This document shows, piece after piece, positions 6,688 to 56,985 of a DNA stretch of 64,000 nt. A program made the position numbers and the translations under genes. This DNA comes from a bacterium. Its GTDB lineage: Bacteria; Patescibacteriota; Dojkabacteria; JAKAPS01; JAJZLI01. The notes beneath the pieces are model-generated. The model did not search any database. It was not told the origin of the DNA and worked only from the letters and a program-made list of their open reading frames with translations. Each line of letters begins with the position of its first letter. Position 1 is the first letter of the stretch. The stretch is from NCBI GenBank assembly GCA_021846685.1, contig JAJZWL010000005.1:4722-68721 (forward strand). The letters run 5' to 3'.

Positions 6688-6700
6688 AATGAAGTCTCGC

Positions 6701-34975: not shown

Positions 34976-35707
34976 ATGACTAGCGCAGAATTGTTTTATA
35001 CACCAGAGTTTGATGTGAAATATGAGGCTTATTTACCCCATGTTTCTTTATATGAATATTCTAAAATCTTTTCTAGATATAGTCTTGGGCATAAAATACA
35101 GTGTTTAGAATCGCGAAGAGTTTCTGAACATTCAAATTCTCTTGATAGAGATCCAAATTCTTTTGCTTTAGATAATCAAGAATTTGGCGTATATGATGAA
35201 TCTACTTTTAATGATAGAGATTTTAGATATCGCAGAAAAATATCATCTTATCTTGAACATGAGGTGTCTAGGGAATTTATATTGGATGTTTCAGGATACA
35301 TGGCATCTTCCGATAAACCAGATGAAGCCATAGAAGATATATATGATGAGTTCATGTTAATTCATGATGAATTTCAAGGATTAGATGATTTAGATATTTT
35401 GGAATTCCTTTTGTTTTATAGGAATTATCGTAACCGCACTAATATTGAGGAAAAAATAGATTTATATTCTAGACAAAAAGGTGAAATGGGTAGCCTAATA
35501 ACAGATTCTATATTAAAGCATATTATTTTAGCTCAAGGATTGAGAACTATTAAAAATGATCAATTAATTAAAATTAAAGATGATATTGAAGGTTTAGCAG
35601 ATGTATACCCAACTACTCCTTTATATTTAATTTCTGCATTTGCAATATATGGAAAACATCCTTATTCCGAACTACCTTTATATTATGTAGTGGGAGGAAT
35701 AGATTAA
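34976..35707 (+). CDS. Hypothetical acidic protein.
   Basis: ORF track. Confidence 0.45.
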   Translation: MTSAELFYTPEFDVKYEAYLPHVSLYEYSKIFSRYSLGHKIQCLESRRVSEHSNSLDRDPNSFALDNQEFGVYDESTFNDRDFRYRRKISSYLEHEVSREFILDVSGYMASSDKPDEAIEDIYDEFMLIHDEFQGLDDLDILEFLLFYRNYRNRTNIEEKIDLYSRQKGEMGSLITDSILKHIILAQGLRTIKNDQLIKIKDDIEGLADVYPTTPLYLISAFAIYGKHPYSELPLYYVVGGID

Positions 35708-36390
35708 TTATTTGCAGTAAAACTTCCACTATCTATTGTTTTAGTATTTCCAGATGAATAATTTGTTATGGAGATTGTATATTCTCCTGACATTCCAGAT
35801 GAATTTGTCTCTTCTTGGTAATTTGGTTCGTAGTTAGCTTTTTCTCCTGTGAATATTAAGCAATAATTATTATTGATTTCTTTAGCACTGGTAATTACAC
35901 CATTAGATACATCAGTAGTTGTCTCTATATTTCCAATAGATCCTGTCATACTAGGGAAGGATATTCCATTTCCAGTCATAAAATTTTCACCAGTTACAGT
36001 GACAGAAGACTTGTTATTAGTATTTTGATTTTTAAATGCTGCTGCTATTTTAGGATTATTTCCTATGTCGACTACAACCGTTATCAAATTTCCATTTCCG
36101 TCAAGATAAACCTCTCCTGGGTGTAAGTTTTCAGGAATACCATTACTATTTTTCTCGCTTGTATTTACCAAATGTAAACTTTGGTTGTCGTTATTAGTTT
36201 TACCACCAGATTCTAATGAAGCTATAGTTGCCCCTGCACCTAATAATGCTAATGTAATAGCCAATCCTCTTACAACCTTTCCTCTTCGTGTTAGTCGAGA
36301 CTCTTTATGGTTATTTTCCTGAATTGATTTTAAAGCTTCGTCGTTATTCATAATTAACCCTATAATATTATATCTTATAGTTTTTGTCAA
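35704..36390 (-). CDS. Membrane-anchored or secreted hypothetical protein.
   Basis: An N-terminal TM/signal-like segment (VVRGLAITLALLGAGATIASL) followed by a Thr/Asn/Gly-rich ectodomain. Confidence 0.45.
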   Translation of the reverse strand: MTKTIRYNIIGLIMNNDEALKSIQENNHKESRLTRRGKVVRGLAITLALLGAGATIASLESGGKTNNDNQSLHLVNTSEKNSNGIPENLHPGEVYLDGNGNLITVVVDIGNNPKIAAAFKNQNTNNKSSVTVTGENFMTGNGISFPSMTGSIGNIETTTDVSNGVITSAKEINNNYCLIFTGEKANYEPNYQEETNSSGMSGEYTISITNYSSGNTKTIDSGSFTANN

Positions 36391-36478: not shown

Positions 36479-37615
36479 TTATTTTTTAAGAGAGATAATT
36501 TTTGAAAAAAGACCTGCAAATATTGTCTGAGTCCCTAATATGAAGATGGTTACTCCTGAGATTATTCTTCCTGAACTTAGTAATGATCCAGTTTTAGTCT
36601 GTATCCAGATTATATATGCATCAATTAGTATTATGATACTAAGTAATATTAATATTAATCCTAAAATTAATATTTTATTCATATCTAATTTTTGAATAAA
36701 TTTTGTTACTCTGTCTTGTTGTATAAATTTTTCCATTAAAGAGTATTGTTTTGTTAAAAAACCAAATATTAAAATATTGTATCCTAATATAACTAATGTA
36801 GATGCAAGATAGAGTACATGGTAGTAGAATGTTCTTCCGAAAATTGTAAAGTGTCCAGGAGAAAGTAATATGAATATTATAATTCCTATTAGAAACAATA
36901 AAAACCCAGGATATATAAATGTAAAATTAGTACCTTGTGTTAATAAAAAAGAAAGATGTCTCCATCCATCTTTAAATGTAGATAGTTTTGCCTCAGAGCC
37001 CTTTCTTTTAGATAATGTTATTGGAACTTCTGATATTTTTAATTTCAATTTTGAAGATTTCACAACCATTTCAGATGCAAATTCCATACCTTCTGTTTGC
37101 ATATCTAATTTTTTATATGCTTCTTTTTTTATTCCTCTTATTCCACAATGAGCGTCTGATATACTTGTTCCATAAAAAATATTTAAAATGAAAGTAAGTA
37201 TAGGGGCACCAATCCTGTGAGATAAAGGAGAAGCTCCTTTTTCTATTTTGCCTTTTTTATATCTATCACCCATGACAAAGTCATAACCTGTTTTTAACTT
37301 TTTATATATTTTTTTTGATTCATAAAAATCATATGTGTCGTCAGCATCAGCCATAATTATATATTCTCCCTTAGCTTCTTTAAATCCTCTTTTAAGAGCA
37401 TTTCCATAACCTTTATGCAATTCTTTAAATACCTGTGCACCAGATTTTTTTGCTATATCAAAAGATTTATCCGTGGAATTATTATCAATAACTATAACCT
37501 CTCCCTTAATTTTTAAATCTTTTATGGCTTTTTTTGCTTTTTTAACACATATTGCTACAGTACTTTCTTCGTTGTAACAAGGCATTATTATTGAGAGTTC
37601 TATACTTGTCTTCAT
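36479..37615 (-). CDS. Polyprenol-phosphate glycosyltransferase (GtrB/ArnC/DPM1-like GT2) with a C-terminal TM domain.
   Basis: LSIIMPCYNEESTV...VIVIDNNSTDKS...IIMADADDTYD is the GT2 catalytic core. Four C-terminal TM helices are typical of GtrB/ArnC-like enzymes. Confidence 0.8.
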   Translation of the reverse strand: MKTSIELSIIMPCYNEESTVAICVKKAKKAIKDLKIKGEVIVIDNNSTDKSFDIAKKSGAQVFKELHKGYGNALKRGFKEAKGEYIIMADADDTYDFYESKKIYKKLKTGYDFVMGDRYKKGKIEKGASPLSHRIGAPILTFILNIFYGTSISDAHCGIRGIKKEAYKKLDMQTEGMEFASEMVVKSSKLKLKISEVPITLSKRKGSEAKLSTFKDGWRHLSFLLTQGTNFTFIYPGFLLFLIGIIIFILLSPGHFTIFGRTFYYHVLYLASTLVILGYNILIFGFLTKQYSLMEKFIQQDRVTKFIQKLDMNKILILGLILILLSIIILIDAYIIWIQTKTGSLLSSGRIISGVTIFILGTQTIFAGLFSKIISLKK

Positions 37616-37743
37616 ATTTTTGAGATTGTATCATATTTAGCTCATATTTATAAGATTTTTCACTCTTTATGGTATTTAATTAAAAAAAGTAGAGGAATTT
37701 ATAACATTTCTAATATATATATTAGATGTTATAATAAAACTCA

Positions 37744-38469
37744 ATGGCTAAACTACTATTTGCAGGTTCTGGAGAGTTTACTGATTCTATGAATGACATA
37801 GATAGCTATCTCTGTTCTAGTATAAATTTAACTAAAATTATGATTATCCCAACTGCGGCAGGTAAGGAAAAAGATTTTCATAAATGGATAGATAATGGTA
37901 TTTCTCATTTTAAAAAAATTGGAAAGGAGGCTTTCGGGGGGGATTTAATATCAAGAGAGGATTATTTTAAAGATGAATATATTGCTCTTCTTGATAAAAC
38001 TAATTTTATATATTTTTCAGGTGGAGATCCTGAATATTTATTATCTTGTATTGAAAACACTCCATTTTTAGAAAAACTTTTGAGTAAATTAAAAGAGAAA
38101 GATTTTATTCTAGCAGGATCCTCAGCAGGAGCTATGATTATGGGAAGTTATACTCCTGTTAATATTTTAAATAGAATATTCTCTTCGAATAAAAAGGGGG
38201 TCTTTATTAGAGAGGCATTAGATCTAGGTCATTTTATAGTGATTCCTCACTTTAATAAAATTCCTAAAATATTAGAATTAAAATATATAAGTGAAAGAAT
38301 AATAAATAGTTTACCCGATATAACTATTGTGGGAATAGATGAAGATACCGCTATATTAACTGAAAATAATACAGAATTTAAAGTGTTAGGAAAAGGGAGT
38401 GTCTATATTATTAATGGTAATGCAAAGATAATTTCATATAAAAATTATGAAATATTTAATATAAAATGA
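37744..38469 (+). CDS. Peptidase S51 family (dipeptidase E / cyanophycinase-like).
   Basis: IYFSGGDPEYLL and ILAGSSAGAMIMG correspond to the conserved GGN..LL and nucleophile-Ser (G-x-S-A-G-A) regions of PepE-type enzymes. Confidence 0.65.
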   Translation: MAKLLFAGSGEFTDSMNDIDSYLCSSINLTKIMIIPTAAGKEKDFHKWIDNGISHFKKIGKEAFGGDLISREDYFKDEYIALLDKTNFIYFSGGDPEYLLSCIENTPFLEKLLSKLKEKDFILAGSSAGAMIMGSYTPVNILNRIFSSNKKGVFIREALDLGHFIVIPHFNKIPKILELKYISERIINSLPDITIVGIDEDTAILTENNTEFKVLGKGSVYIINGNAKIISYKNYEIFNIK

Positions 38470-40463
38470 AAAAATATTTTTACATAAATCAATTCTTAAT
38501 TATTCTTCTGTATATATATCTTTTTATATTTCCATACAGTTATATCCCTTTTTTTATTATTTTACTATTGATATTAATTACATTTTTATATACCGATGGT
38601 AAAATTTTAAAAAAAATTATTAATTTATTTTTTAAATATACAGAGAGTATAAGGCGAACTTTTTTTGCTACTTTTATTCCAATTTTACTTTTTATTGCAT
38701 ATTCTTTCCATAATTTGCTATTGTTATTCTATTTGATATCTATTTTGATACTATTATTTTACTTATTTTTGTTTATAAAGTCATTATTTATTCTAAAAAA
38801 GATAAATTTAAAGTTATCGGCAACTAATTTGCCTCAGGAAAAAAATTTAGAAAGTATATTCTCTAAATTACCCCTCAATATATTATATGTATGTAGTAAA
38901 AAAGAGGTATTTCAAGAGATTCAAGTTAGTCATACTTTAAAAGATAATATAGTAGATATTGTACATATTAATTATCCAGATATAATGATTACTGAAGTTG
39001 AAAATACATCTAAAAAGAAATATAAAAAATATTTATTTATAGACTCATCTTTTGATTATTATGATAATATTATGCAGATTTTAAAGGATAATAAAGATAT
39101 TTCATTTAAATTTATTTTCAGAAATCCTTATAGATTTATGAATTTATCTTTAGTTTTATTAAAAATAGAATCCAATGATAAAAATCTTTTAAAAAGAATA
39201 AATACGTTATTTTCTGATAATCTACAAAAAGATCTAATATTTGATAATAAAAAATTATCAAAGGTATTTCATCCAATTGTCGACTCAGGGAATATAATTG
39301 ATGTAGTTGAATCAAGTTCCGAAATAAATGTACCCTTAAAAATATTAGATTCTAATAAAGGTGTATTAATGGGAATTAATCGTGGTAATAGAATTTATAT
39401 TTCACCTAAACATTTTTTATCACACAGTTATTTAATAGGAAAAACAGGGTCGGGTAAAAGTGTTTTTATGAGTAATATTATTATTCAAAATATAAAGAAA
39501 ATGAATCCATGTATTGTAATTGATCCTCATAATATTGCGGATATAATTTTGTCAAAATTGAATAAAAAAGATTTGAAGAATGTAGTTTTGGTCGATTTTT
39601 CTGATCTTAAATATTCTATTAATCCATTAGATTTAAGTAGTAGTAAAAATCCTTATCTTTTGATAGATAATACCGTATCTATATTTAAAGATCTTTATTC
39701 TGAATTTTGGGGTCCTCAAAGTGATGATATTTTAAGAAGAAGCCTGTCGGCGCTAATTTTTTCAGAAGAAGATTATTCTATTCTAGATTTAGAAGAATTT
39801 CTTACAGATGATCATTTTAGATTAAAAGTTCTTTTTTCTGTACATGATAGAGATACTTTAGATTATTTTGATAATATTTTTTCTAAATGGGATAATAGAT
39901 CTAGGTCAGAGAGAATCTCTCCTATTTTGAATAAAATAGGAAGACTAAAGTCTGATAAGTTTATATCACAATTTGTCTCTGGAAATAAAGATCTGCTAGA
40001 TTTAAAAACTCTTGTAAAAGAGGGCAAAAGTGTCATTTTTTCTGTATCAAAGAAGTTTGTAGGAGAAGAGAACTCTAAATTTTTAGGATCTCTTGTTATA
40101 AATCAAATTAGGAATGTTATTCTTCAAGAAGATATTAGCAGGCATATATACTTATATATAGACGAATTCCAGAATTTTATATCAGATAACTTCTTGTTTA
40201 TCTTTTCAGAATCAAGAAAATATAACTTATCAATATTTATAGCAAATCAATATATAGACCAAATAGATCAAAAGTACCTTTCTAGTATAATAGAGAATTG
40301 TTCTAATTTTTATGTAATGGATATAGGAGAAAATTCGAAGAAATATTTATCTCAAGTTCTAAAATTTGAGATACCTTCGAAAATATCTGAACATATTATT
40401 TATGCTAAAAATGGCAATAACCCTATCTATACAATTTATTCTTATGTTAAAAAGCATGGTTGA
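38466..40463 (+). CDS. Membrane-anchored FtsK/HerA/VirD4-superfamily P-loop ATPase, resembling a type IV coupling protein.
   Basis: An N-terminal block of about 120 aa with 3-4 TM helices. Walker A LIGKTGSGKS. Walker B IYLYIDEFQNF. About 665 aa, with TraG/VirD4-like architecture. Confidence 0.5.
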   Translation: MKKYFYINQFLIILLYIYLFIFPYSYIPFFIILLLILITFLYTDGKILKKIINLFFKYTESIRRTFFATFIPILLFIAYSFHNLLLLFYLISILILLFYLFLFIKSLFILKKINLKLSATNLPQEKNLESIFSKLPLNILYVCSKKEVFQEIQVSHTLKDNIVDIVHINYPDIMITEVENTSKKKYKKYLFIDSSFDYYDNIMQILKDNKDISFKFIFRNPYRFMNLSLVLLKIESNDKNLLKRINTLFSDNLQKDLIFDNKKLSKVFHPIVDSGNIIDVVESSSEINVPLKILDSNKGVLMGINRGNRIYISPKHFLSHSYLIGKTGSGKSVFMSNIIIQNIKKMNPCIVIDPHNIADIILSKLNKKDLKNVVLVDFSDLKYSINPLDLSSSKNPYLLIDNTVSIFKDLYSEFWGPQSDDILRRSLSALIFSEEDYSILDLEEFLTDDHFRLKVLFSVHDRDTLDYFDNIFSKWDNRSRSERISPILNKIGRLKSDKFISQFVSGNKDLLDLKTLVKEGKSVIFSVSKKFVGEENSKFLGSLVINQIRNVILQEDISRHIYLYIDEFQNFISDNFLFIFSESRKYNLSIFIANQYIDQIDQKYLSSIIENCSNFYVMDIGENSKKYLSQVLKFEIPSKISEHIIYAKNGNNPIYTIYSYVKKHG

Positions 40464-40905
40464 CAAGTTGATACTTACAATATATTCGAAAATAGACTTT
40501 TATCCAGAAGCAATAAGGATTAAATCAGATATTGAAAATTCAGGATATCTTTGTTTTTTGCCATTTGAAGAAGGGTATAATTCTCTGCTAGTAGGTAAAA
40601 ATGGGGATATTGATTATAAATTGTTATCTAAAATGAAAAATAAAAATAATTATTTAAAAAAAGAATTTGAATATATAAATTCTTCTCATGCTATTTTGCT
40701 TTTAAATTATAGTTGGAATAATATTGACGGATATATAGGCTCTAATATGTTTTTGCAAATTGGTATTGCATATATATTAAAAAAGAAAATATTTATACTA
40801 AATACTTTAAATGATTCTCAAATAGGATTAAAAAATGAAATAATGTTAATGAATCCTATTGTTCTTAAGGGAAATGTAAATAAAATAAAAAATTACCTGT
40901 TTTAG
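40457..40905 (+). CDS. Small hypothetical protein, possibly with a nucleoside 2-deoxyribosyltransferase-like (Rossmann/flavodoxin-like) fold.
   Basis: The internal ATG at 40457 overlaps the upstream stop (ATGGTTGA). The track ORF 40366..40905 would overlap the ATPase by about 100 bp. SHAILLLNYS..NIDGYIGSNMFLQIGIAYILKKKIFIL weakly resembles the NDT-family core. Confidence 0.3.
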
Positions 40906-40907
40906 TT

Positions 40908-41636
40908 ATGTATAGCAATATTAGTAATAAAGATTTAGAATTATTAACTTTTATAAATGAACATCCTTGCCTTTCAAGTCAGGATATAAGTCTTTTTTTC
41001 GATATTAAACTTTTTACGCTAAGAACTAGGCTAAGAGTTCTTTGTGAATATAAATTTATATCTTTTTTAACAGTGTCTAGTTTTAAGGGGTTTAAATATT
41101 ATTTTTCTACCAAAAAGGGCAATAAAATGATAATAAAAGCTTCTAATAAATTTAATAAATTTGATACTTCTGAAAAAAAGCTTTTTTTACGTCATATTAT
41201 TGAATCTAATGACTTTTTTATACATTTGAAGAAAATTTCATTAGATAATGGATATAATTTTTCAGATTGGGTATCGGATGTTAACACTGCCATACTATTT
41301 AAATATAATGGTTCTTCATATAAATTAATTCCAGATGGATACTGTATGTTTAAAGATATCAATATATATTTAGAGTTAGATAGATCTACTGAGTCATTTT
41401 TCAAGATATTAAGAAAAATAGAAGTATATTCTAATTTTTATCTTTCTATGGGATATAAAAAATATTTTTCTGAATTTCCTATGGTTATATTTATATTTCC
41501 TGATTTAAAAAGGGCTAAATTTATTCAAGATAAAGTAGAGGCTTATATAACGTTAAAAAAATATAAAGAGGAGCTAAATTTTTTCTATTTTTTTGATAAA
41601 TTAGACTTTTATAAAAATACTGAGAAATATTTATGA
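40908..41636 (+). CDS. Replication-relaxation family protein (putative plasmid or ICE relaxase/regulator with an N-terminal winged helix).
   Basis: The N-terminus LELLTFINEHPCLSSQDISLFF..LRTRLRVLCEYKFIS is winged-helix-like. The C-terminal LIPDGYCMFKD..IYLELDRSTES matches the PDa..ElDrGTE signature of the Replic_Relax family. Confidence 0.5.
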   Translation: MYSNISNKDLELLTFINEHPCLSSQDISLFFDIKLFTLRTRLRVLCEYKFISFLTVSSFKGFKYYFSTKKGNKMIIKASNKFNKFDTSEKKLFLRHIIESNDFFIHLKKISLDNGYNFSDWVSDVNTAILFKYNGSSYKLIPDGYCMFKDINIYLELDRSTESFFKILRKIEVYSNFYLSMGYKKYFSEFPMVIFIFPDLKRAKFIQDKVEAYITLKKYKEELNFFYFFDKLDFYKNTEKYL

Positions 41637-41648
41637 TATAATTTTATT

Positions 41649-42437
41649 ATGAATAAAGAGTATGTACTAATAACAGGAGCAACTAGCGGAATAGGGTATG
41701 AATTAATGCTTCTTTTTGCCAAAAATAAATATAATTTACTCTTAGTATCCAGAAACAAAGAAAAACTTAAAAATATAAAAACAAAAATTGAAAAAAAATA
41801 TAAAATCCATATTGAATATTTAGATATAGATCTATCAGAGTCTGATTCTGCAGAAAAAGTTTATTATTTTATTACAAACAATAAATTAAATATCTCAATA
41901 TTAATTAATAATTCGGGGTTCGGACTAAAAGGGAAATTTGAAGAGAATGATCTTCAAAAATATGAAGAAATGGTTAATCTTAATATTTTAACATTAACTA
42001 AATTGACCTATTTGGTACTTCAAGACATGAAAAAGAGAAAGAAAGGTAAAATTTTAAATCTTGCTTCAGTAGCTGCATTTCTTCCTGGTCCATATATGAG
42101 TGTTTATTTTGCTACGAAAGCGTATGTGCTTTCGTTCTCGGAGGCTTTGTTTTTTGAAAATTCTGCTGATAATATTACTATTACAGCTTTATGTCCTGGA
42201 TCTACTAAAACAAACTTTGCCTCAGTTGCAGGATTCAAAAGTAAAGATTCTTTTAATAAAAATGCAATGAGTGCTTCTCAAGTAGCTTTGATTGGATATA
42301 AAGGGTTAATGAAAGGAAAACGAGTTGTTATAGCAGGAGGGTTAAATAACTTTTCTGTATTTTTCATTAAATTTATTCCAAATCGATTAATTGGCAAAAT
42401 GATTCTCAGGTTTAATAATTCAAGTTCAGCTAATTAA
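41649..42437 (+). CDS. Short-chain dehydrogenase/reductase (SDR).
   Basis: The N-terminal ITGATSGIG is the NAD(P)-binding motif. NNSG and the catalytic YFATKAY (Y-x-x-x-K) are present. Confidence 0.85.
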   Translation: MNKEYVLITGATSGIGYELMLLFAKNKYNLLLVSRNKEKLKNIKTKIEKKYKIHIEYLDIDLSESDSAEKVYYFITNNKLNISILINNSGFGLKGKFEENDLQKYEEMVNLNILTLTKLTYLVLQDMKKRKKGKILNLASVAAFLPGPYMSVYFATKAYVLSFSEALFFENSADNITITALCPGSTKTNFASVAGFKSKDSFNKNAMSASQVALIGYKGLMKGKRVVIAGGLNNFSVFFIKFIPNRLIGKMILRFNNSSSAN

Positions 42438-42470
42438 ATCAGTTATAATCTAGTTTAGTATTATAAATTT

Positions 42471-43088
42471 TTAGAGTAATTTAGATTGCTCTTTGAAAAA
42501 AATTTTTACTTCATCCCAACTAACATTAGATATAAGATTGATTAAAGTATGATCATTGTCTGCCATTTCAAAAAAAGTTAAAGATTTTATGTAATGAAAC
42601 TGATTAATATCATTTTCACCAAATTTTTTTGAAAATATATTAAATAGATCTGTAATTTTATAGTAATTTTTCAAAATGAAATATAAATCATAAAAATCTT
42701 TTTTTAAACCTCTGCTACCAATTGCTATTATTTTCATAAGGGCAATATCTTTTATTGAAGCTAAATAAATATTATTATATATTTCCTTTTTATCTATAAG
42801 TGGATATTGATAAAGAAAAAAACTTATTTCACACTCATTGGAAAAACCTCGTAAACTTCCTTCTGTAATTGTAACTTTCTTTAATTTAAGCACTCTATTT
42901 AGCGATTTTAATAGCATATCACTATCAAATGTATTATGAGTAAAAAAATCTAAATCATAAGAGATTCTATGTCCAATTTGCAATGAGAGAGCTGTTCCAC
43001 CAGCAAGGTAAAAATTATTTATAGTTTTTATATCTTTTAGTAAGGCCAGAGCATTTTTTGCTCCGGTGTTGATTGTCTTGTCAAACAT
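42471..43088 (-). CDS. Nucleotidyltransferase toxin of the AbiEii/AbiGii (DUF1814) family.
   Basis: FYLAGGTALSLQIGHRISYDLDFFT matches the conserved GGTAL...R.S.DiDf core of AbiEii. Confidence 0.6.
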   Translation of the reverse strand: MFDKTINTGAKNALALLKDIKTINNFYLAGGTALSLQIGHRISYDLDFFTHNTFDSDMLLKSLNRVLKLKKVTITEGSLRGFSNECEISFFLYQYPLIDKKEIYNNIYLASIKDIALMKIIAIGSRGLKKDFYDLYFILKNYYKITDLFNIFSKKFGENDINQFHYIKSLTFFEMADNDHTLINLISNVSWDEVKIFFKEQSKLL

Positions 43089-43363
43089 GAAATAGGATTT
43101 GAAATATTAAAATAATTTTTAAAGAAGTATGCTGTGCGCCTACTTATTTCACTAGAATGAATAATAGTATCTATAATTTCTTTATCTGAAAATAATTTTT
43201 TAATTTCTTTAAAATCTTTTAAAGTTCCTTGGTCAAGTACTCGCCCTATTATATAATTTTTATCTTTATGGATGTCTAATTCTTTAAATTTAACATCATA
43301 AAAATATCGTTCAAATTCCTTAGGTATCATAGAATCATTATAGCAAACAGGCCAGTAATACAC
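43037..43363 (-). CDS. Putative cognate antitoxin/partner of the AbiEii-like gene.
   Basis: A 108-aa ORF immediately upstream that overlaps the toxin start by about 50 bp in the track annotation. No motif was recognised. Confidence 0.35.
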   Translation of the reverse strand: MYYWPVCYNDSMIPKEFERYFYDVKFKELDIHKDKNYIIGRVLDQGTLKDFKEIKKLFSDKEIIDTIIHSSEISRRTAYFFKNYFNISNPISCLTRQSTPEQKMLWPY

Positions 43364-43571
43364 AATTAACTATATTGTTGTTTTATATAACTTGAAACAC
43401 TGATTCTTGAAATATTAAGTTTTTTTATATATACTAGGTTTCTATGAAAAGAAAAAAAGGAAGAATAAAAGAGAAATTAAAAGCAAAAGAGCAAAGAATT
43501 TCTATTAATAAGAGAAAAAGAGCTAGGTTATTAGCTGCTGAAGAAAAAAAATAGATATTTTTAATCTGCGT

Positions 43572-44330
43572 CTATAATAGTCCCCATTTTTTAATGTAAT
43601 CAATATACCCTTTGTAAAGAAGTACTTTTCTTTTATATCCAAGTTTTTTTGTGGTTTGTCCATATAGGTGAGTAACTTTTGCTTCAGACAGAAAATAAGT
43701 GTTTATTCTATGTTTTTTCATTTTTCTGAAAAAATCCACATCATTAAAATATAAAGGAAATTGTTCATCAAAAAGTCCATATTTGTCTAAAACAGATTTT
43801 CTTATTAAGATACATGTAGCTTGAGGCTGATTAACTTCTCTTGAGTCATTATGATCCCAATAAGATAATTTATATTCACCAAAAATTTTTGATTTTTTAG
43901 TTAAATCAAAAAAACTTTTCATTACATTTATAAAAGTTGGAAAATTCCTACATGATTTTTGGATACTATTGTCTTTATTTAGTAATTGTGGTGCAGCTAT
44001 AGAGTATTTTTGATTATTATCTAAGAAAACTTTTAATTTTGTGATTGCATTATCTTTGACAATAGTATCAGATCCTAAAAGTAATATATATTTACCTTTT
44101 GAATGTAAGTATCCAATATTATTAGCTTTTGCAAAGTAGGTATTTTTTTTGTTTTGGATAACTTTTAAATTTTTATACTGAAGTTCTAATTTTTTAATTT
44201 TTATACTGTCATTAGAACTATTGTTAATAAGTATTATTTCATAGGTAAAATCTAGATTTTTAATACTTTCTATACACTTTTTTGTTAGATTATATGTATT
44301 CCAATTAACTATAATTATAGATAATTCCAT
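43572..44330 (-). CDS. Family 2 glycosyltransferase.
   Basis: LSIIIVNWNTYNLT...ILINNSSND...GSD...C-terminal FNDVDF. Confidence 0.8.
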   Translation of the reverse strand: MELSIIIVNWNTYNLTKKCIESIKNLDFTYEIILINNSSNDSIKIKKLELQYKNLKVIQNKKNTYFAKANNIGYLHSKGKYILLLGSDTIVKDNAITKLKVFLDNNQKYSIAAPQLLNKDNSIQKSCRNFPTFINVMKSFFDLTKKSKIFGEYKLSYWDHNDSREVNQPQATCILIRKSVLDKYGLFDEQFPLYFNDVDFFRKMKKHRINTYFLSEAKVTHLYGQTTKKLGYKRKVLLYKGYIDYIKKWGLL

Positions 44331-44333
44331 GAT

Positions 44334-45050
44334 TTATTTATAAATATGATTATATTTGTTTTTTAATTTATTAATTCTGTGAAAGTATTCAAATATATCT
44401 TTTATTGAAAGTTTTGAGGCTCCCAGAGTCCTATCTTTAAACTCAATAGGTATCTCTTTTATTTTTAAATTCTTTTTATAGAAATAATAGAGTATTTCTA
44501 CCTGGAAAAGATATCCATTAGATTTTATATTTCGAATTATTTCTTTATCAAAAACACTCGCTTTGATTATTTTAAATCCTGAAGTACAGTCATTGTAAGG
44601 GAGTTTTAATATTTTCTTTGTAAAAGCATTTCCGAATTTTGAATTCATTCTCCTAGAAAAGCTCCACTCCTTAGGTATACTTCCTCCTTCTGTGTACCTA
44701 GATCCAATCACTACATCATATTTGGAAGAATAGTTTATGAATTCTTTTAAATATTTAGGATCATGAGATAAATCTGCATCCATTTGAATAATATATTTTG
44801 CATGCATTTTCTCTATTGCATACAAAAATCCTCTTTTATAGGCATCTCCTAACCCTTTTTTGTCCCCTTCTATAAGATGGATATGGTTATTTCTTTTTTG
44901 AGCCTTTTTAATATAGTCTGCAGTTTTATCAGGAGATTTATCATCTACAAAAAGTATATCCACATCAAGTTTTGTTGCAAAAATCTTTTTTATAATTTTC
45001 TCTATATTGAGTCTTTCGTTATATGTAGGTATTATTATTACATATTTCAC
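44334..45050 (-). CDS. Polyprenol-phosphate glycosyltransferase (DPM1/GtrB-like soluble GT2).
   Basis: YVIIIPTYNERLNIEKII...ILFVDDKSPDKTADYI...IIQMDADLSHDPKYL is the classic Dpm1-like signature. Confidence 0.8.
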   Translation of the reverse strand: MKYVIIIPTYNERLNIEKIIKKIFATKLDVDILFVDDKSPDKTADYIKKAQKRNNHIHLIEGDKKGLGDAYKRGFLYAIEKMHAKYIIQMDADLSHDPKYLKEFINYSSKYDVVIGSRYTEGGSIPKEWSFSRRMNSKFGNAFTKKILKLPYNDCTSGFKIIKASVFDKEIIRNIKSNGYLFQVEILYYFYKKNLKIKEIPIEFKDRTLGASKLSIKDIFEYFHRINKLKNKYNHIYK

Positions 45051-45180
45051 TTTATTTAGGAGTATATAAGATAATAGAACATTATAGCATTTTTATATTA
45101 AAATTGATTAATTTTATGGATATATCGAAAGGCTTTTAGATTAAAAATTTTAATGTTATACTTTCAAAAAAAACATAATT

Positions 45181-46989
45181 ATGACAATAAAAAACTTTTT
45201 TAGTAGTATTCAGAAAAATAGTACATCCTTTTTTATAAAAAGACAAAATACTATAGTTTCAGCTGCCTTTATAATAATGGCTGTTACAGCAATTTCTAAG
45301 ATTTTAGGCCTTTTTAAATTAACACTATTGGCTAATATTTTTGGATTATCACGTAGTTTAGATATTTTTTATGCAGCAGATTCTATTCCTCAAATATTTT
45401 TTAATATATTAGTTTTAGGATCTTTTAATACTGCACTTATTCCTGTAATAGGGGAGTTGGTATTTAAAAAGAAAAGTGAGACTATGTGGAAAGTATTTAA
45501 TTCATTTTTAAATATATTTGCATTAATATTACTTGTAGTTGGTATATTAGGTATAATCTTTGCAAGAGAAGTAGCAGAATTATTTATTTATTTGGCAGCA
45601 GCATATAGATCTTCTACAATTCCAAACTTTAGACCTTCAGATATTACTTTAATATCTTCTTTAATGCAGATACTTTTTATATCTCCTATTATCCTGGGTA
45701 TTTCATTTATATTTAGCTCTTTATTGCAAGTATATAAAAGATTTCTAGTGACTCAGGTTGCTACTGTTCTATATAATTTAGGCTTCATAATAGGAATACT
45801 ATTTTTTACTCCATTTTTAGGAATCTATGGTCTTTGTTGGGGAATAGTATTAGGAAGTGTTCTTCATTTATTAGTTCAATTTCCAGTAGCAAAATATCTA
45901 GGATTTAGTTATAAAAGTGCAATTTTAGGTTTTAAGAATAAATATATAAAGGAACTATTTGTACTTTCTTTACCTAGATTTATAGGGATAGCTTTTTCTC
46001 AATTAGCATACTTTGTAGAATCTTTTATTGCTTTTGCTTTAGTTCCAGGATCTTTAACTGCATTTAATTGGGCTACTAGTTTGTATCTTTTTCCTGTAGC
46101 TGTAATAGGATGGAGTTTTGCGCAAGCATCTTTTCCTACCCTTGCCGAGGAGTCTTCTGCAAATATGTTAGAGACTTTCAAGAAAACTGTCTCGAAAACT
46201 GTAAATCAGACTTTATTTTTTGTTATTCCTATCTTTGTGGTCATCTTAATTTTAAGGCTTCCTATAGTTCGATTAATTTTAGGGCCAGGATCCAATAGTA
46301 AATTTGGATGGAATGATACAATATTAACATCTTGGATACTTTTATTTTTGTCTTTATCTATCATTGGTCAAGCGATTCTATCAATACTTATAAGAGCTTT
46401 TTATTCTTTAAAGGATACAAAAACTCCAGTTATTGTTGAAATATTGACTTTTATTTTAAATATAATATTAGCTTTATATTTTGTCCGAGTTTTTGGGAAT
46501 TTCCCTGTAATATCTCCTACTATTGGGAATATATTTAATATTAATAACTATATACATTTTAATAGTAAATTTACATGGAAAGCTATTGGTGGGTTAGGAT
46601 TTGCATCAGGGATAGCTGTTACACTAAATGTACTAGTATTAATATATCTTTTAGGTAAAAGGTTAAAAGGATTTTCTTTTAAAGAATTTTATCTTCCTGC
46701 TATAAAGAAACTTTCAAGTGGAGCTTTTATGTCGGTTGTAATGTATTTTGTATATAAGCTTTTGTCTACAATATTTAATACATCAAAAACTGTGGATGTT
46801 ATATTTCTATTTTTGATTACTATATATATAGGTTTATCGGCATATTTTATAGCAGCCTTCGTATTAAATGATTCTGATTTAGATCTTTTAACAAGAGGAG
46901 TATATGCTTTTAGAGATATTCTTTATGGTAAAAAATTAAAAGGTATATCAGGTGTTGATGACAGTATATCTAATTCCCCAGAGAGTTAA
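45181..46989 (+). CDS. murJ: MurJ/MviN-like MOP-superfamily flippase (lipid II or polysaccharide precursor).
   Basis: The N-terminal region KILGLFKLTLLANIFGLSRSLDIFYAADSIPQIFFNILVLGSFNTALIPV matches the conserved MurJ N-terminus (G..R...lA..fG.....DaF..A..iP..l......Ga...AfiP). About 14 TM helices. Confidence 0.7.
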   Translation: MTIKNFFSSIQKNSTSFFIKRQNTIVSAAFIIMAVTAISKILGLFKLTLLANIFGLSRSLDIFYAADSIPQIFFNILVLGSFNTALIPVIGELVFKKKSETMWKVFNSFLNIFALILLVVGILGIIFAREVAELFIYLAAAYRSSTIPNFRPSDITLISSLMQILFISPIILGISFIFSSLLQVYKRFLVTQVATVLYNLGFIIGILFFTPFLGIYGLCWGIVLGSVLHLLVQFPVAKYLGFSYKSAILGFKNKYIKELFVLSLPRFIGIAFSQLAYFVESFIAFALVPGSLTAFNWATSLYLFPVAVIGWSFAQASFPTLAEESSANMLETFKKTVSKTVNQTLFFVIPIFVVILILRLPIVRLILGPGSNSKFGWNDTILTSWILLFLSLSIIGQAILSILIRAFYSLKDTKTPVIVEILTFILNIILALYFVRVFGNFPVISPTIGNIFNINNYIHFNSKFTWKAIGGLGFASGIAVTLNVLVLIYLLGKRLKGFSFKEFYLPAIKKLSSGAFMSVVMYFVYKLLSTIFNTSKTVDVIFLFLITIYIGLSAYFIAAFVLNDSDLDLLTRGVYAFRDILYGKKLKGISGVDDSISNSPES

Positions 46990-49357: not shown

Positions 49358-50497
49358 ATGAAATATATAGATAGATTACTTTACAACAAAATACCTGAAT
49401 TGATAAAACCCAATAAGGTTCTCATTATATATGGACCAAGAAGAGTTGGTAAGACTTTTATTTTGAATAAATTCTTATCAGAGTATAAATATAAATATCT
49501 CTTTGTTACAGGAGATGATAGGGTTACACGTAGATTACTTGAAAATCAGAATTTAAGTGAAATAAAATCATTTATTGGGAATAATGATCTGTTTGTTATT
49601 GATGAAGCTCAGAAGGTTAAAAATATAGGAGAGATCTTAAAATTAATTGTTGATCAAATCCCCCAAATAAAAGTAATTGCGACAGGATCGTCTTCATTTG
49701 ATTTATCAAATAAAGTAGGAGAGCCTTTGACAGGGAGAAGTATCACTGAAGTATTATACCCAGTAAGTCAGATTGAGTTAAAAAATCAGATTTCATATCT
49801 TGAGACAGTATCATCTTTAGAAGAGAGATTAATTTATGGTTCATATCCAGAAGTAATAACTTTAGATACAATGGATTCTAAAAGATCTTATTTGATAGAA
49901 CTTACAGACTCCTATCTATTAAAAGATTTAATGGATTTAGAAAATACAAAAAGTTCTAATCTATTAATTGATTTATTGATATTAATTGCATTTCAGATAG
50001 GAAAAGAAGTTTCTCTTCAAGAACTAGGAAATCGGTTAAATATTAGTAAAAATACAGTTAGTAGATATTTATTCTTATTAGAAAAGGCTTTCGTAATAAT
50101 TAACATTAGGGGTTATAGTAGTAATCTTAGGAAGGAAGTAACACAAAATTCCAGATATTACTTTTATGACAATGGTATAAGGAATGCTCTAATTAGAAAT
50201 TTTAATCCAATATCACTAAGGGGTGATATTGGACAATTATGGGAAAATTTTCTTTTTATTGAACGTTTAAAAAAACAAGAATATCTTAATATATATTCGA
50301 ATAATTATTTTTGGAGAACATATGATAAAAAAGAAATTGATTTAGTAGAATCAAGAGAAGGAAAATTATTTGGATATGAATTTAAATATTCAAAATCTAC
50401 TATACCAACTGCAACATCAAAAGAATGGTTATCAACATATCCAAATAGTAGTCTAAATGTTGTAACGAAAGAAAACTATCTTGATTTTATAACATAA
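49358..50497 (+). CDS. AAA-family ATPase of the AAA_14/DUF4143 type.
   Basis: Walker A IIYGPRRVGKT. Walker B LFVIDEAQ. The C-terminal region is typical of the DUF4143 ATP-binding protein family. Confidence 0.7.
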   Translation: MKYIDRLLYNKIPELIKPNKVLIIYGPRRVGKTFILNKFLSEYKYKYLFVTGDDRVTRRLLENQNLSEIKSFIGNNDLFVIDEAQKVKNIGEILKLIVDQIPQIKVIATGSSSFDLSNKVGEPLTGRSITEVLYPVSQIELKNQISYLETVSSLEERLIYGSYPEVITLDTMDSKRSYLIELTDSYLLKDLMDLENTKSSNLLIDLLILIAFQIGKEVSLQELGNRLNISKNTVSRYLFLLEKAFVIINIRGYSSNLRKEVTQNSRYYFYDNGIRNALIRNFNPISLRGDIGQLWENFLFIERLKKQEYLNIYSNNYFWRTYDKKEIDLVESREGKLFGYEFKYSKSTIPTATSKEWLSTYPNSSLNVVTKENYLDFIT

Positions 50498-53706: not shown

Positions 53707-54813
53707 ATGTTACAAAGTATAAAAGGAAAAATATTATTAGGGTTAGCATTAATATCTTATGTGTTTGTTTTTTCAAATATATTCGTAGGTACTCCTGTAT
53801 ATGCAGCTAGTGGTACAATAAATATTTCTTGTGCGCAAATTAACGCAGCTTATAAGAATGCTAAATTTGATGGTCCATTATATAGTACAACTATTAATGG
53901 AGAAAAAATTAATTATGTAAATAATCGTAATGGTCATCCTAGTGGATCTTATCTTAAGCTTGGGTCTATTGATGGTAATGTAAATACTTCAACAAAAAAT
54001 AGCTTTTTAAGTCCAAAATTTATTTGTGTGTTTGGTAATAATGGATCGGGGAATACTTTAACAGTGTCTAGTAGTGCTACTATATATTTGTATCCCACAT
54101 ATGGATCATACAATAATAATTATAATTTTTATGCAATATATCCTAAAAATAATGTTTGCTCTGCTATTGCCAATGCTATTAAAAATAATAAAAAAACCGT
54201 TGATAATAATATACACATAACTAATAATGCATTTAATCTCCCTGCTAATGCTAATAAGATAGGCCAAATAATATATAAGAATGGAAGTGTTGTTGGTGGG
54301 TGTCCTATTGCGCAATCAGACGTTAACAATAGTGCTTTGCAAATTTATATAACACCTGTTAATCAAACAGAACCAGGCAATACCTATGGAGTATATTCTT
54401 CATCTTTAATTATACCACCACCACCTTCTCATGGAGGAGCATATTCAGCGCAAAAAGCATGTGTTGGTAGTGGAATTGGAGTTGGAGCAAGTCGGAATTG
54501 TCAAATTTGTGTAAGAAAAGGAATTAATAGTGGATATAATTATGTATATACAGATTTTGGATGTATAAATACATCTATTTCTGGAGTCATAAATTTTGTA
54601 TATAGATTATTTCTGGTAATAGCATTTATGATTGCACTGGCTGTTATTATATTTGCAGGGTACTTGATTATGGTATCTGGAGGAGATCCAGATCAGCTTA
54701 ATAGAGGAAAGAGTCTTCTTACTAAAGCTATAATAGGGTTACTTGTTATTGTATTTGCATATGTTATGCTTACTACAATAGGAACTATATTTGGAATTAA
54801 ATTTTTAGCATAA
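53707..54813 (+). CDS. Pilin-like paralog 1: signal peptide, a Cys-containing ectodomain of about 270 aa, and a C-terminal VirB2/TrbC-like double-helix module.
   Basis: The signal peptide ends ..GTPVYA-AS. The C-terminus FLVIAFMIALAVIIFAGYLIMVSGGDPDQLNRGKSLLTKAIIGLLVIVFAYVMLTTIGTIFG is the module shared by the six following genes. Confidence 0.6.
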   Translation: MLQSIKGKILLGLALISYVFVFSNIFVGTPVYAASGTINISCAQINAAYKNAKFDGPLYSTTINGEKINYVNNRNGHPSGSYLKLGSIDGNVNTSTKNSFLSPKFICVFGNNGSGNTLTVSSSATIYLYPTYGSYNNNYNFYAIYPKNNVCSAIANAIKNNKKTVDNNIHITNNAFNLPANANKIGQIIYKNGSVVGGCPIAQSDVNNSALQIYITPVNQTEPGNTYGVYSSSLIIPPPPSHGGAYSAQKACVGSGIGVGASRNCQICVRKGINSGYNYVYTDFGCINTSISGVINFVYRLFLVIAFMIALAVIIFAGYLIMVSGGDPDQLNRGKSLLTKAIIGLLVIVFAYVMLTTIGTIFGIKFLA

Positions 54814-54814
54814 A

Positions 54815-55150
54815 ATGAATAATATAAAATTTATAAAACCGATATTAGCTCAATGTACTGGAACTTCTTGTTCAGTATCAATTAATAGTCCTTTTGGTAA
54901 TATATTAAATTCTGGTAGTATATTCTCGTCATTATTTAATCTTTTCTATTTTGTTGTAGGGATAGTATTTATTGTTATTATTATCACATCAGGAATAAGA
55001 ATTATTGTATCTAATGGGAATAGAGAAAGAGTTGCAAAAGCTCAAACCACGTTGACGTATGCAGTAATAGGATTAGTATTGATAGTATTTGCAGGAATAA
55101 TAATTAAAATTTTATCTACTGCATTACCTTTATTTAATGGCCTTATATAA
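54815..55150 (+). CDS. Pilin-like paralog 2, 111 aa.
   Basis: A short N-terminal region followed by the shared module FVVGIVFIVIIITSGIRIIVSNGNRERVAKAQTTLTYAVIGLVLIVFAGIII. It starts 1 nt after the previous stop. Confidence 0.55.
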   Translation: MNNIKFIKPILAQCTGTSCSVSINSPFGNILNSGSIFSSLFNLFYFVVGIVFIVIIITSGIRIIVSNGNRERVAKAQTTLTYAVIGLVLIVFAGIIIKILSTALPLFNGLI

Positions 55151-56082: not shown

Positions 56083-56088
56083 TTTATT

Positions 56089-56418: not shown

Positions 56419-56448
56419 AAATCTTGACTAATTAACCCTATAATATAC

Positions 56449-56477
56449 TTGACTAATGCTTGTTTTTAAGGTATTAT
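56449..56477 (+). promoter_or_regulatory. Promoter-like TTGACT-17-TATTAT immediately upstream of pilin-like paralog 6.
   Basis: Read directly. The implied transcription start is within a few nt of the ATG at 56487, which would mean a leaderless or very short leader. Confidence 0.3.
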
Positions 56478-56486
56478 GAGACTATC

Positions 56487-56915: not shown

Positions 56916-56985
56916 TTGCATTCTTGTTAGATTTTATATATATTTTATAGTATAATAACAAGTTATATTAAGGAGGTGAGAATAA

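Follow-up and report, generated by a model that had tools for sequence, protein, structure and literature searches.

CloDF13 encodes its own T4CP adjoining its relaxase. The Replic_Relax family (PF13814) constitutes the MOBC superfamily of relaxases (PMC5357655, PMC12857230) and has been assigned to the PD-(D/E)XK fold, a role in transcriptional regulation having once been predicted for it from HTH fusions (PMC3424549). In Patescibacteria (CPR), the T4SS is derived from MPF-FATA, T4CPs are usually encoded well away from virB4, and arrays of pilin genes are common; Quinonero-Coronel et al. 2025 counted 58 MOBC hits, and 39 relaxases in the vicinity of a t4cp (PMC12102498). It has been argued that this T4SS is not used in conjugation and that a t4cp was non-essential in one cultivated species, both of which count against the reading favoured below; exaptation of t4cp has also been suggested (PMC12102498). 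The gonococcal genetic island (GGI) provides a precedent for a T4SS that exports DNA of the chromosome instead of transferring a plasmid (PMC6736028).

The window examined here, the whole 64-kb stretch of DNA analysed, comes from a Patescibacteria lineage. All seven ORFs predicted in the block at 37744–43363 were present, as were GT2 glycosyltransferase genes, assigned with Pfam, on either side (36479–37615 and 43572–44330). The five plus-strand genes encode an S51 peptidase, a VirD4-like ATPase, an NDT-like protein, a Replic_Relax protein and a short-chain dehydrogenase/reductase (SDR), overlap or lie no more than 12 nt apart and form a single tightly packed operon. The S51 stop and ATPase start overlap by 4 nt and the ATPase gene overlaps the small ORF by 8 nt, taking 40456 as its start, while 2 nt separate the small ORF from the Replic_Relax gene and 12 nt the latter from the SDR gene. 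The start/stop overlaps are kept among the relatives' loci. Pfam bore out the predicted VirD4/T4CP-like membrane ATPase, Replic_Relax and AbiEii families. An integrase, a tRNA or an Rfam match was found nowhere in the window, the first as originally noted, and a search for repeats flanking the block found none.

The ATPase (38466–40463, plus strand; 665 aa) is anchored by a hydrophobic N-terminus of ∼110 aa with hydrophobic segments at 4–50 and 66–114, and has five helices there in the model. Next come an alpha/beta domain (∼112–265) and the P-loop domain, the latter with an all-alpha insertion at ∼396–520. Profile searches gave TraG-D_C (5.1e-7, 30.1 bits, cutoff 22) and DUF87 (4.6e-6, 27.3 bits, cutoff 23.2) above gathering score and FtsK_SpoIIIE below it. 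The T4CP-specific models TrwB_AAD_bind and T4SS-DNA_transf were under threshold on the window protein, which counts against a coupling role; homologues carry both of these and TraG-D_C. From CPR proteins to the T4CPs of plasmids, there is no change in Walker A (G325–S332), Walker B (D566/E567), E582/R584/K585 or Q595. An AF2 model (pLDDT 84) was compared by Foldseek, giving target-TM values of 0.62–0.68 over the whole chain for TrwB, 0.68–0.71 for the VirB4 C-terminal domain and 0.39–0.51 for HerA. The best E-value belonged to HerA, a further point against the favoured reading. The modelled fold appears closest to TrwB and VirB4, and the fold search does not separate VirD4 from VirB4, which likewise counts against that reading.

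Directly 3' of the ATPase gene in every locus compared is the Replic_Relax gene (40908–41636, plus strand; 242 aa), whose predicted assignment to PF13814 was upheld (7.3e-15, 56 bits, cutoff 25.3). Residues H96, Y133, P142, D143, E156, R159 and K170 are invariant in four CPR and three Firmicutes-plasmid members. Weak wHTH matches over residues 3–112 point to a probable layout of an N-terminal winged helix and a nuclease core. Relatives from Bacillus phages are annotated as ‘replication initiation by nicking’; that family members carry annotations as phage or plasmid replication initiators, and were once predicted to be regulators, counts against the favoured reading. Beside the pair, none of the lineages examined showed an oriT-like conserved non-coding sequence, a hairpin or a set of direct repeats, which also weighs against it. 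The best plasmid matches of the ATPase were in Bacillus (L010) and Staphylococcus (L011), each followed directly by Replic_Relax and then by conjugal-transfer genes, and in B. mycoides (L009, NZ_CP128138.1) an FtsK/SpoIIIE-type ATPase gene overlaps a Replic_Relax gene. A conjugation-derived pair is thus supported, the same two genes heading conjugal-transfer operons on Firmicutes plasmids in the same order, and the pair here is homologous to the head of those operons.

Three further genes make up the operon. The first (37744–38469, plus strand) encodes a cyanophycinase/PepE-like Peptidase_S51 (PF03575, 2.5e-16) which scored 86.6 bits against the TIGR02069 cyanophycinase model, under its cutoff of 126.6. 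It lies 5' of the ATPase gene in L001/L013, L014, L015/L004 and L020, is split into two ORFs in L002 and is missing from L016 and L017/L005. The last (41649–42437, plus strand) encodes the SDR (adh_short, 2.3e-42), 75% identical to its L001 orthologue, which occurs in the same subclade as S51, is missing from L016/L017 and more likely belongs with the neighbouring glycan/envelope genes than with DNA transfer. We know of no role for S51 or SDR proteins in DNA transfer, and this also counts against the favoured reading. The predicted small overlapping ORF exists (40456–40905, plus strand), but homology with relatives places its start most likely at 40456, giving 149 aa, and not at 40366. Its NDT-like label is undetectable in the window protein itself and holds by transitive homology, because 30 of 52 family members match PF05014; for this survey 625 representative relatives were gathered and the 52 members examined for PF05014 and for the Glu column. 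Within the family, Maf, NUDIX and MazG each occur once as fusion partners. Glu occupies the column in 50/52 members, but the ATPase-linked orthologues have Q101 (window), D (L001 and L020) or N (L014), so that this is predicted to be an NDT-fold protein without the family's usual nucleophile Glu. The gene is accessory and restricted to one subclade, being missing from L016 and L017, and a single-sequence AF2 model (pLDDT 38) was unusable.

Downstream of the operon, blastn against L001 delimited a species-specific insertion of 982 bp (42421–43402) with the toxin-antitoxin pair. This is the sole true indel inside the block, in which true insertion is limited to this ∼1-kb cassette. It was inserted separately, in this species only, with the SDR gene on one side and, on the other, a conserved small ORF for a highly basic 36-aa product (43447–43557, plus strand). 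L001 and L020 have nothing in this slot, which in L004 is filled by PIN_3, a 109-aa gene and HAD. An AbiE-like pair had been predicted, and the AbiEii-type nucleotidyltransferase toxin (42471–43088, minus strand; PF08843, 5e-15, 56.5 bits, cutoff 22.5) with an upstream partner stands, matching ten PADLOC AbiEii models (best 4.8e-10) and known as this exact protein only from this same context. The partner is a presumed antitoxin of family DUF6922 (43037–43363, minus strand; PF21956, 3.4e-12, 46.1 bits, cutoff 27), not AbiEi. Its gene, which probably starts at an ATG at 43330, runs 52 nt past the start of the toxin gene, and the protein had no PADLOC match and no plasmid relative. The pair resembles AbiE type IV toxin-antitoxin/abortive infection systems in having an AbiEii toxin with a small overlapping upstream gene and in varying in presence between close relatives, and differs in that DUF6922 replaces the AbiEi wHTH antitoxin. 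The neighbourhood takes up other small cassettes: an AAA_14/PDC-S01 gene lies at 49.4–50.4 kb, and L004 and L020 have toxin-antitoxin variants.

The basic ORF is conserved across the clade 3' of the module, being called as 36–38 aa in L001, L018 and L020 and 33 aa in L005, and has its own conserved promoter, TTGAAA-N17-TATACT (43407–43435). About 10 kb downstream, the predicted pilin-like array proved real, with seven VirB2-like T4SS_pilin genes (53707–57420, plus strand), 7/7 of which matched PF18895 (E 1.2e-4 to 1.7e-10). VirB4, VirB6 and VirB3 were found neither in the window nor within ±10 kb of the relatives' loci, so the cognate channel is assumed, another point against the favoured reading.

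The original prediction took the block for a 5.6-kb island inserted into the glycan locus, perhaps a decayed integrative element. A mobilisable or integrative element, or a recent remnant of one, would account for relaxase-family and T4CP-like genes, which are hallmark mobilisation genes, beside a toxin-antitoxin pair in a neighbourhood acquiring small cassettes. However, relatives have these genes in the same position and the five-gene core is free of indels, and for this reason the island reading fails. Of the five related genomes at species level, three have the full operon at this place, next to GT2-GT2-MurJ-GroES/EL. The order S51, ATPase, small ORF, Replic_Relax, SDR was found there in L001/L013, L020, L014 and L015/L004 (ATPase identity to the window 65%, 67% and, for the last two, 45–46%), and the ATPase and Replic_Relax genes alone in L016 and L017/L005 (37–38%); the pair is thus present in 5/5 GTDB species found. 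Collinearity with L001 at the DNA level is clean, window 37727–42420 corresponding to L001 9254–13958 and 43403–46984 to 13956–17533, and besides L001 three further species-level lineages hold the core in that position. Percentage identities fall in the same order for the ATPase (65/45/46/37/38), Replic_Relax (65/52/53/45/44) and MurJ (88/79/79/71/70), and dS between the window and L001 is that of the flanks (ATPase 1.19, Replic_Relax 1.17, MurJ 1.12). GC, GC3 and codon usage are native with no compositional anomaly, no copy of the block was found on viral contigs, and att repeats are lacking as are an integrase and tRNA. The exact AbiEii, moreover, is limited to this context. An inserted element is therefore very improbable. 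Most of the block is a chromosomal operon, old and stably inherited in the lineage; the block is not one element, and S51 and SDR are not demonstrably mobile-element cargo.

Three other explanations concern function. A HerA-type ATPase scaffold might activate a PD-(D/E)XK nuclease against invading DNA, as in DUF4297-HerA or Sir2-HerA. The HerA E-values, with defence complexes 8xaw and 8zir among the matches, weak PADLOC matches (mad8, 2.8e-11, and HerA P-loop regions), the PD-(D/E)XK family of the partner (PMC3424549), the nucleotide-related protein between the two and the nearby toxin-antitoxin cassettes and candidate defence gene (PDC-S01) could all be so explained. However, the HerA alignments have rmsd of 12–15 Å and target-TM well short of TrwB and VirB4, the PADLOC HerA matches span only ∼40 residues round the P-loop, and none of the Replic_Relax, NDT-like, S51 and SDR proteins gave a PADLOC match. 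Strict positional conservation and vertical descent are unusual for defence systems, and a membrane-anchored ATPase with TraG-D_C, in a pair whose closest plasmid relatives head conjugal-transfer operons, leaves this only a small chance. There is a minor but real chance that the pair acts on the cell's own DNA without export, in nick-initiated replication, repair or segregation of the chromosome or an undetected episome, or that Replic_Relax is mainly a wHTH regulator and the ATPase exapted for a non-DNA substrate. The annotation of the phage relatives, the HTH fusions (PMC3424549), possible t4cp exaptation (PMC12102498) and the lack of an oriT beside the pair and of VirB3/VirB4/VirB6 nearby are in keeping with this. 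Invariance of the nuclease residues over deep divergence nevertheless speaks against a solely regulatory role, the two genes are ordered and tightly coupled as in conjugation operons, and the ATPase retains TraG-D_C and its anchor. Lastly, the five genes may be mere neighbours in a compact genome, with the pair decaying: S51, NDT-like and SDR genes vary in presence from one subclade to another, L002 has a split S51, the NDT-like protein lacks its Glu and dN/dS of the pair is ∼3x that of MurJ. Yet these values (ATPase 0.21–0.32, Replic_Relax 0.20–0.43) are well below 1, so that both genes are under purifying selection, six lineages, at 37–67% identity, retain full-length ORFs whose catalytic motifs are intact, and the start/stop overlaps are conserved. 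The chance of there being no functional unit is slight.

We favour, with moderate confidence, a conserved core consisting of the ATPase/Replic_Relax pair, chromosomally fixed, vertically inherited and of conjugative ancestry. On sequence grounds it would be a DNA-processing/coupling module, possibly serving the Patescibacteria T4SS and embedded, in one subclade, in an operon with the S51 peptidase, NDT-fold protein and SDR. Replic_Relax would bind DNA through its winged helix and nick it with the D143/E156/K170 site. The membrane-anchored ATPase, presumably hexameric, would interact with the relaxase, take over the nucleoprotein substrate and feed it into the MPF-FATA-derived secretion apparatus of the lineage, with VirB4 and VirB6 encoded elsewhere in the genome and the VirB2-like pilins supplied by the array. 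The fallback originally offered, in which the pair serves that array, is viable, and the array may be the ATPase's functional partner.

The pairs on Bacillus and Staphylococcus plasmids (NZ_CP076533.1, NZ_CP065798.1) are of the same families, in the same order and with tight or overlapping coupling, and share the Walker motifs and P-D...E-x-[DE]-R...K nuclease core. They differ in that identity is only 18–24%, the plasmid ATPases have 850–900 aa and a different N-terminal region, and their genes lie on replicons and precede conjugal-transfer genes, whereas the pair here is chromosomal, lineage-fixed and followed by SDR and glycan genes. Compared through their family and published descriptions, the MOBC relaxases pAD1 TraX and CloDF13 MobC also belong to PF13814 (PMC5357655), with an active site of PD-(D/E)XK type and an N-terminal winged helix (PMC12857230). 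As here, CloDF13 has a T4CP gene of its own by the relaxase gene. A difference is that neither an oriT nor a direct-repeat binding site or nic site could be identified here. For how the pair might work, the GGI of Neisseria gonorrhoeae, with its chromosomal, non-canonical TraI relaxase and TraD T4CP (PMC6736028), is an analogy only: it has a MOBH relaxase and a diderm host and is a horizontally acquired island with a complete adjoining T4SS. The Patescibacteria T4SS sets are likewise chromosomal, of MPF-FATA (monoderm) ancestry, with a T4CP far from virB4 and a multi-gene VirB2-like pilin array (PMC12102498). This clade's assemblies were not found among the examined rows of the table in that study, which regards relaxases as rare MGE genes of recent acquisition, whereas the pair here is syntenic and co-diverging across the clade.

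Profile searches of the block at 37744-43363 found all of the open reading frames named in the original prediction and upheld their domain calls, and the glycosyltransferases said to flank the block were borne out as GT2 genes on both sides. On the + strand lie a Peptidase_S51 gene (37744-38469, domain profile), the gene for a 665-aa ATPase (38466-40463) with TraG-D_C and DUF87 matches above the Pfam thresholds, a small NDT-like ORF of 149 aa whose start at 40456 was placed by homology to relatives, a Replic_Relax gene (40908-41636) and an SDR gene (41649-42437, domain profile). On the - strand are an AbiEii gene (42471-43088) and a gene for a DUF6922 protein (43037-43363, domain profile). The five + strand genes overlap or lie no more than 12 nt apart and thus look like one operon; the small ORF and the end of the ATPase gene share 8 nt, an overlap found unchanged in the relatives. 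The S51 and SDR genes would be passengers in this operon; for the SDR, a link to the polyprenol/glycan genes around it is more plausible. The window, with a GC content of ∼27%, bears the marks typical of a Patescibacteria (CPR) genome, and the homologues of the block proteins all came from that group. No tRNA or Rfam match was found in the 64-kb window.

An extended -10 element (TGTTATAAT) at ∼37722-37733 ends 9-11 nt ahead of the S51 start codon, and the same spacing occurs upstream of 9270 in L001, a related locus on another contig. This short distance in both genomes suggests that the leader is very short or absent. Promoter-like matches in the window numbered 59 as compared with 49 ± 8 in shuffles, i.e. 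not above shuffles, and each of four terminator-like matches fell inside a gene. In the related locus L002 (JGI 3300033990) the S51 gene, 6323-7056, is broken into two ORFs; L002 otherwise equals L001 over the DNA compared save for one nucleotide difference in a GT2 gene. The split reflects a frameshift in a population variant or else a misassembly.

The block had been taken for a mobile-element-like island inserted into the glycan locus, and this hypothesis is refuted by just what the original prediction had named as counting against it, the same genes at the same place in relatives. Orthologues of the ATPase, 67, 65, 45-46 and 37-38% identical, were found on long chromosomal contigs of up to 335 kb, and when one genome was scanned for each GTDB species, five species had the Replic_Relax orthologue. 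When the window proteins were mapped on all of the related loci, the order S51-ATPase-small ORF-Replic_Relax-SDR followed by GT2-GT2-MurJ-GroES-GroEL was seen in L001/L013, L014, L015/L004 and L020. L016 and L017/L005, the two lineages that diverge most, have only the ATPase and Replic_Relax genes, still overlapping and still upstream of GT2-GT2...MurJ; in L016 two other genes, without assigned family, stand in place of S51, NDT-like gene and SDR, which are limited to one subclade. The Replic_Relax gene is directly downstream of the ATPase gene in every lineage found, and this pair is the unit that every lineage keeps. Nucleotide alignment shows window 37727-42420 to be collinear with L001 9254-13958; collinearity resumes with window 43403-46984 at L001 13956. 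The core pair is at the same site in all relatives found, and the one polymorphic piece is a 982-bp toxin-antitoxin cassette.

The block has also diverged together with its flank. Identities of 65/45/46/37/38% for the ATPase and 65/52/53/45/44% for Replic_Relax fall in the same order as those of MurJ (88/79/79/71/70%), and dS to L001, which is near saturation, was 1.17-1.19 inside the block and 1.12 for MurJ. The composition is native: gene GC z-scores of -1.4 to +0.1, GC3 z-scores of -0.1 to +1.6 and the codon distance are all within the window range. The original prediction had seen no integrase, and indeed no integrase or other recombinase was found in the block or in the 64-kb window. A search for repeats flanking the block gave only short, roughly 70-80% AT-rich chance matches, and scans with a pattern for the Replic_Relax clade drew no match among viral or JGI metagenome contigs. 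An integrative mobilisable or conjugative element was considered and rejected, given that integrase, tRNA target, repeats, atypical composition and core polymorphism are all missing.

The sole indel within the block, 42421-43402, carries the AbiEii and DUF6922 genes and was inserted between the SDR stop and the promoter of a 36-aa basic ORF. L001 and L020 have nothing in this slot, and L004 has a PIN-type pair and a HAD gene there (PIN_3 gene and 109-aa gene, 14044-15716). The exact AbiEii protein was found only in this same context. The pair had been called AbiE-like, and this stands for the toxin, which matches PF08843 (56.5 bits, cutoff 22.5) and the PADLOC AbiEii models, but not for its partner: no AbiEi winged-helix-turn-helix antitoxin was found upstream of AbiEii, the gene there encoding a DUF6922 protein that has no AbiEi or PADLOC match and no match in the plasmids searched. 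The toxin is common to this cassette and AbiE type IV systems; the upstream partner differs, being DUF6922 here and not AbiEi. In itself the cassette is ordinary.

Differing cassettes occupy differing intergenic slots of the neighbourhood in different relatives, making it a hot spot of toxin-antitoxin turnover. A different AbiE-type pair in L020, a 211-aa gene with a 510-aa AbiEii-domain protein (8136-10293), is placed between GT2 and MurJ, and a BrnT/CopG pair is at 112-658 in L005. An AAA_14/DUF4143 ATPase gene at 49358-50497 matches the PADLOC candidate defence family PDC-S01 (4e-145) and constitutes a ∼1-kb indel (∼49377-50383) between GroEL and an AddA-like helicase, where L001 has only a 78-aa ORF. 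These toxin-antitoxin and defence cassettes are the real variable units of the neighbourhood. The 36-aa very basic ORF (MKRKKGRIKEKLKAKEQR...) at 43447-43557 on the + strand is conserved, and its promoter, TTGAAA-N17-TATACT at 43407-43435, is kept in the window, L001 and L014; in L017/L005 and L020, too, a similar basic ORF of 33-38 aa lies downstream of the ATPase/Replic_Relax pair. The block's left border shows a local rearrangement. Two convergent, overlapping hypothetical genes (243 aa and 228 aa) are at window 34976-36390, upstream of GT2_TM, and their homologues sit between GT2_TM and S51 in L001 (6811-8306) and L015 (L004 6432-7854).

The ATPase had been predicted to be a membrane-anchored FtsK/VirD4-type protein. 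Hydrophobic segments at 4-50 and 66-114 supply the anchor. An AF2 model built from 55 sequences was confident (pLDDT 84) and comprised membrane helices at 2-107, an alpha/beta domain at 112-265 and a P-loop domain into which an all-alpha segment is inserted at 396-520; the N-terminal region is clade-specific. All 55 homologues, and the T4CPs of Firmicutes plasmids as well, keep Walker A (GKTGSGKS, 325-332), Walker B (D566/E567), E582/R584/K585 and Q595 without change. Foldseek placed the model in the HerA/VirB4/VirD4 superfamily. TrwB aligned from end to end (target-TM 0.62-0.68, rmsd ∼5.5 Å); for the C-terminal domain of VirB4 the TM was 0.68-0.71. HerA had the best E-value yet superposed poorly (TM 0.39-0.51, rmsd 12-15 Å), and FtsK was absent from the best 50 matches, so that assignment to FtsK proper or to HerA repair is not supported. 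Among profiles, TraG-D_C scored 30.1 bits (cutoff 22), TrwB_AAD_bind 14.8 bits (below 20.5) and TIGR03743 TraD 44.7 bits (far below 366), and Pfam gave no T4SS-DNA_transf match on the window ATPase; PF10412 and PF02534 are borne by more distant homologues. Matches in a PDB search with the clade profile were limited to the P-loop. VirD4-like is preferred to VirB4-like on account of the membrane anchor, TraG-D_C, the gene context and the T4CP domains found in the more distant homologues.

The second member of the pair, 40908-41636, was confirmed as a Replic_Relax protein, PF13814 scoring 56.0 bits (cutoff 25.3) over 183 of the 191 profile positions; the L016 orthologue scored 59.8 bits. PF13814 has been placed in the PD-(D/E)XK fold (PMC3424549) and corresponds in Pfam to the MOBC relaxase superfamily (PMC5357655, Table 1). 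In pAD1 TraX, the prototype of that superfamily, a winged helix at the N-terminus is combined with an active site like that of restriction endonucleases (PMC12857230). Residues 3-112 gave only weak MarR/TFE/PadR-type matches in the PDB (E 0.05-2) for a winged helix. CPR members and members from Bacillus and Staphylococcus plasmids all share H96, Y133, P142-D143, E156, R159 and K170, and all have D or E at position 158. Word-indexed homologue searches with Replic_Relax and the small ORF reached close relatives only. Estimates of dN/dS were 0.21-0.32 for the ATPase, 0.20-0.43 for Replic_Relax and 0.07-0.16 for MurJ, ratios that are rough because dS of the diverged pairs is near saturation (0.9-2.5); they indicate that both genes of the pair are under purifying selection. 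L001, L002, L003 and L013 come from one strain, their DNA being identical, and so cannot serve such tests. No conserved non-coding element, hairpin or set of direct repeats resembling an oriT was seen in or beside the module in six lineages, and cross-lineage comparison of intergenic regions found nothing conserved except promoters. An oriT, if present, may be intragenic or diverged.

An exhaustive search placed the small ORF in a family with about 625 representative clusters. Its 'NDT-like' label holds by transitive homology, since 30 of 52 sampled family members match Nuc_deoxyrib_tr (PF05014; best 7.6e-8), but not by direct match: PF05014 did not match the window protein even at E up to 10, and the L001 orthologue gave E 0.15. 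Fusions to Maf, NUDIX and MazG were seen in single family members each. The window protein has Q101 at a near-invariant Glu column (E in 50 of 52 members) that we take to be the NDT/DNPH1 nucleophile, and its ATPase-linked orthologues elsewhere have D or N there. Given this replacement, the protein is probably non-catalytic. A single-sequence AF2 model was unusable (pLDDT 38.5) and a PDB search with the clade profile found nothing.

When plasmids were searched by tblastn using only the ATPase, the best matches were ATPases of Bacillus and Staphylococcus plasmids (about 23% identity, E 4e-11 to 3e-6), each followed directly by a 'replication-relaxation family protein' gene and then by 'conjugal transfer protein' genes; on B. 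mycoides plasmids the Replic_Relax gene is overlapped by an FtsK/SpoIIIE-type ATPase gene. These contexts indicate that the pair in this order is a recurrent module heading monoderm conjugation operons, which fits the descent of the Patescibacteria T4SS from the monoderm MPF-FATA class (PMC12102498). Two such plasmids, from Bacillus (NZ_CP076533.1) and Staphylococcus (NZ_CP065798.1), carry a T4CP-like ATPase, Replic_Relax and conjugal-transfer genes yet are typed 'non-mobilizable' by MOB-suite, which suggests that standard mobility typing misses Replic_Relax relaxase candidates.

Patescibacteria T4CPs are mostly encoded far from virB4, and arrays of VirB2-like pilins are common (PMC12102498). 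The window has seven consecutive T4SS_pilin (VirB2-like, PF18895) genes at 53707-57420, an array of the type described as essential in a cultivated Saccharibacterium; the first encodes a 368-aa protein with the PF18895 domain C-terminal. The array is bracketed by DNA-end-processing genes, an AddA-like UvrD helicase-PD-(D/E)XK nuclease (50511-53225) and an SbcCD-like Metallophos and SMC_N pair (58004-61191). RCC1-type repeats occur in two large secreted-type proteins, an S8 subtilase and a GH18 chitinase-like hydrolase (window 4552-8809, L005 1650-5913), which are conserved as a pair in relatives and have moved beside the ATPase region in the L005/L017 lineage.

The best-supported mechanism for the pair is one of nicking and coupling, whose steps beyond gene content we infer: Replic_Relax would bind and nick DNA, and the membrane-anchored ATPase, as a hexamer, would couple the nicked substrate to a T4SS. 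Against this stand the lack of any oriT-like element found, the absence of virB4 and virB6 from the window and from ±10 kb around the relatives' loci, the view that the Patescibacteria T4SS is not conjugative and the dispensability of t4cp in one species (PMC12102498). A rival reading is a defence system made of a HerA-type ATPase and a PD-(D/E)XK nuclease. PADLOC lends this weak support through HerA matches of the ATPase local to the P-loop and a match to mad8 (2.8e-11), but its nuclease partner has no PADLOC match, and the membrane anchor and strict synteny speak against it. Alternatively, the pair may be active on the cell's own DNA, in replication or regulation (PMC3424549). That the two genes are mere relics is difficult to reconcile with their intact motifs and with dN/dS well below 1.

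Returning to nicking and coupling, a joint reading would make the pair, vertically inherited and fixed on the chromosome in this clade, the 'missing relaxase' module of the Patescibacteria T4SS, acting in export or exchange of chromosomal DNA, with the NDT-fold pseudoenzyme as a new relaxosome accessory factor. Taken as a whole this reading is unlikely. If true, the piliated T4SS of these epibionts would handle not only proteins but chromosomal DNA too, in the manner of Hfr-like transfer or of DNA secretion by gonococci. The Patescibacteria T4SS is widespread, and essential in one species; the pair offers concrete proteins for tests of DNA nicking and export. The retention of the pair at one chromosomal site across a clade, under purifying selection, indicates that at least some lineages keep a putative DNA-processing partner as a resident gene and not as cargo of a mobile element. 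For annotation, the hallmarks of a relaxase and a T4CP together with a toxin-antitoxin pair do not equate to a mobile island.

A mobilisation module of T4CP and MOBC/Replic_Relax is of a kind already known, and the window resembles described Patescibacteria T4SS gene sets in having a VirB2-like pilin array (PMC12102498). In that 2025 survey of Patescibacteria, orphan T4CPs numbered in the thousands and relaxases were nearly absent; its 58 MOBC homologues, and the 39 relaxases of all classes near t4cp, were interpreted as acquired mobile elements (PMC12102498). In contrast to those MOBC cases, what is added here is a well-documented pair that is resident, syntenic and co-diverging across the clade, with a clade-specific ATPase N-terminus and a probable NDT-fold pseudoenzyme encoded between the two genes.
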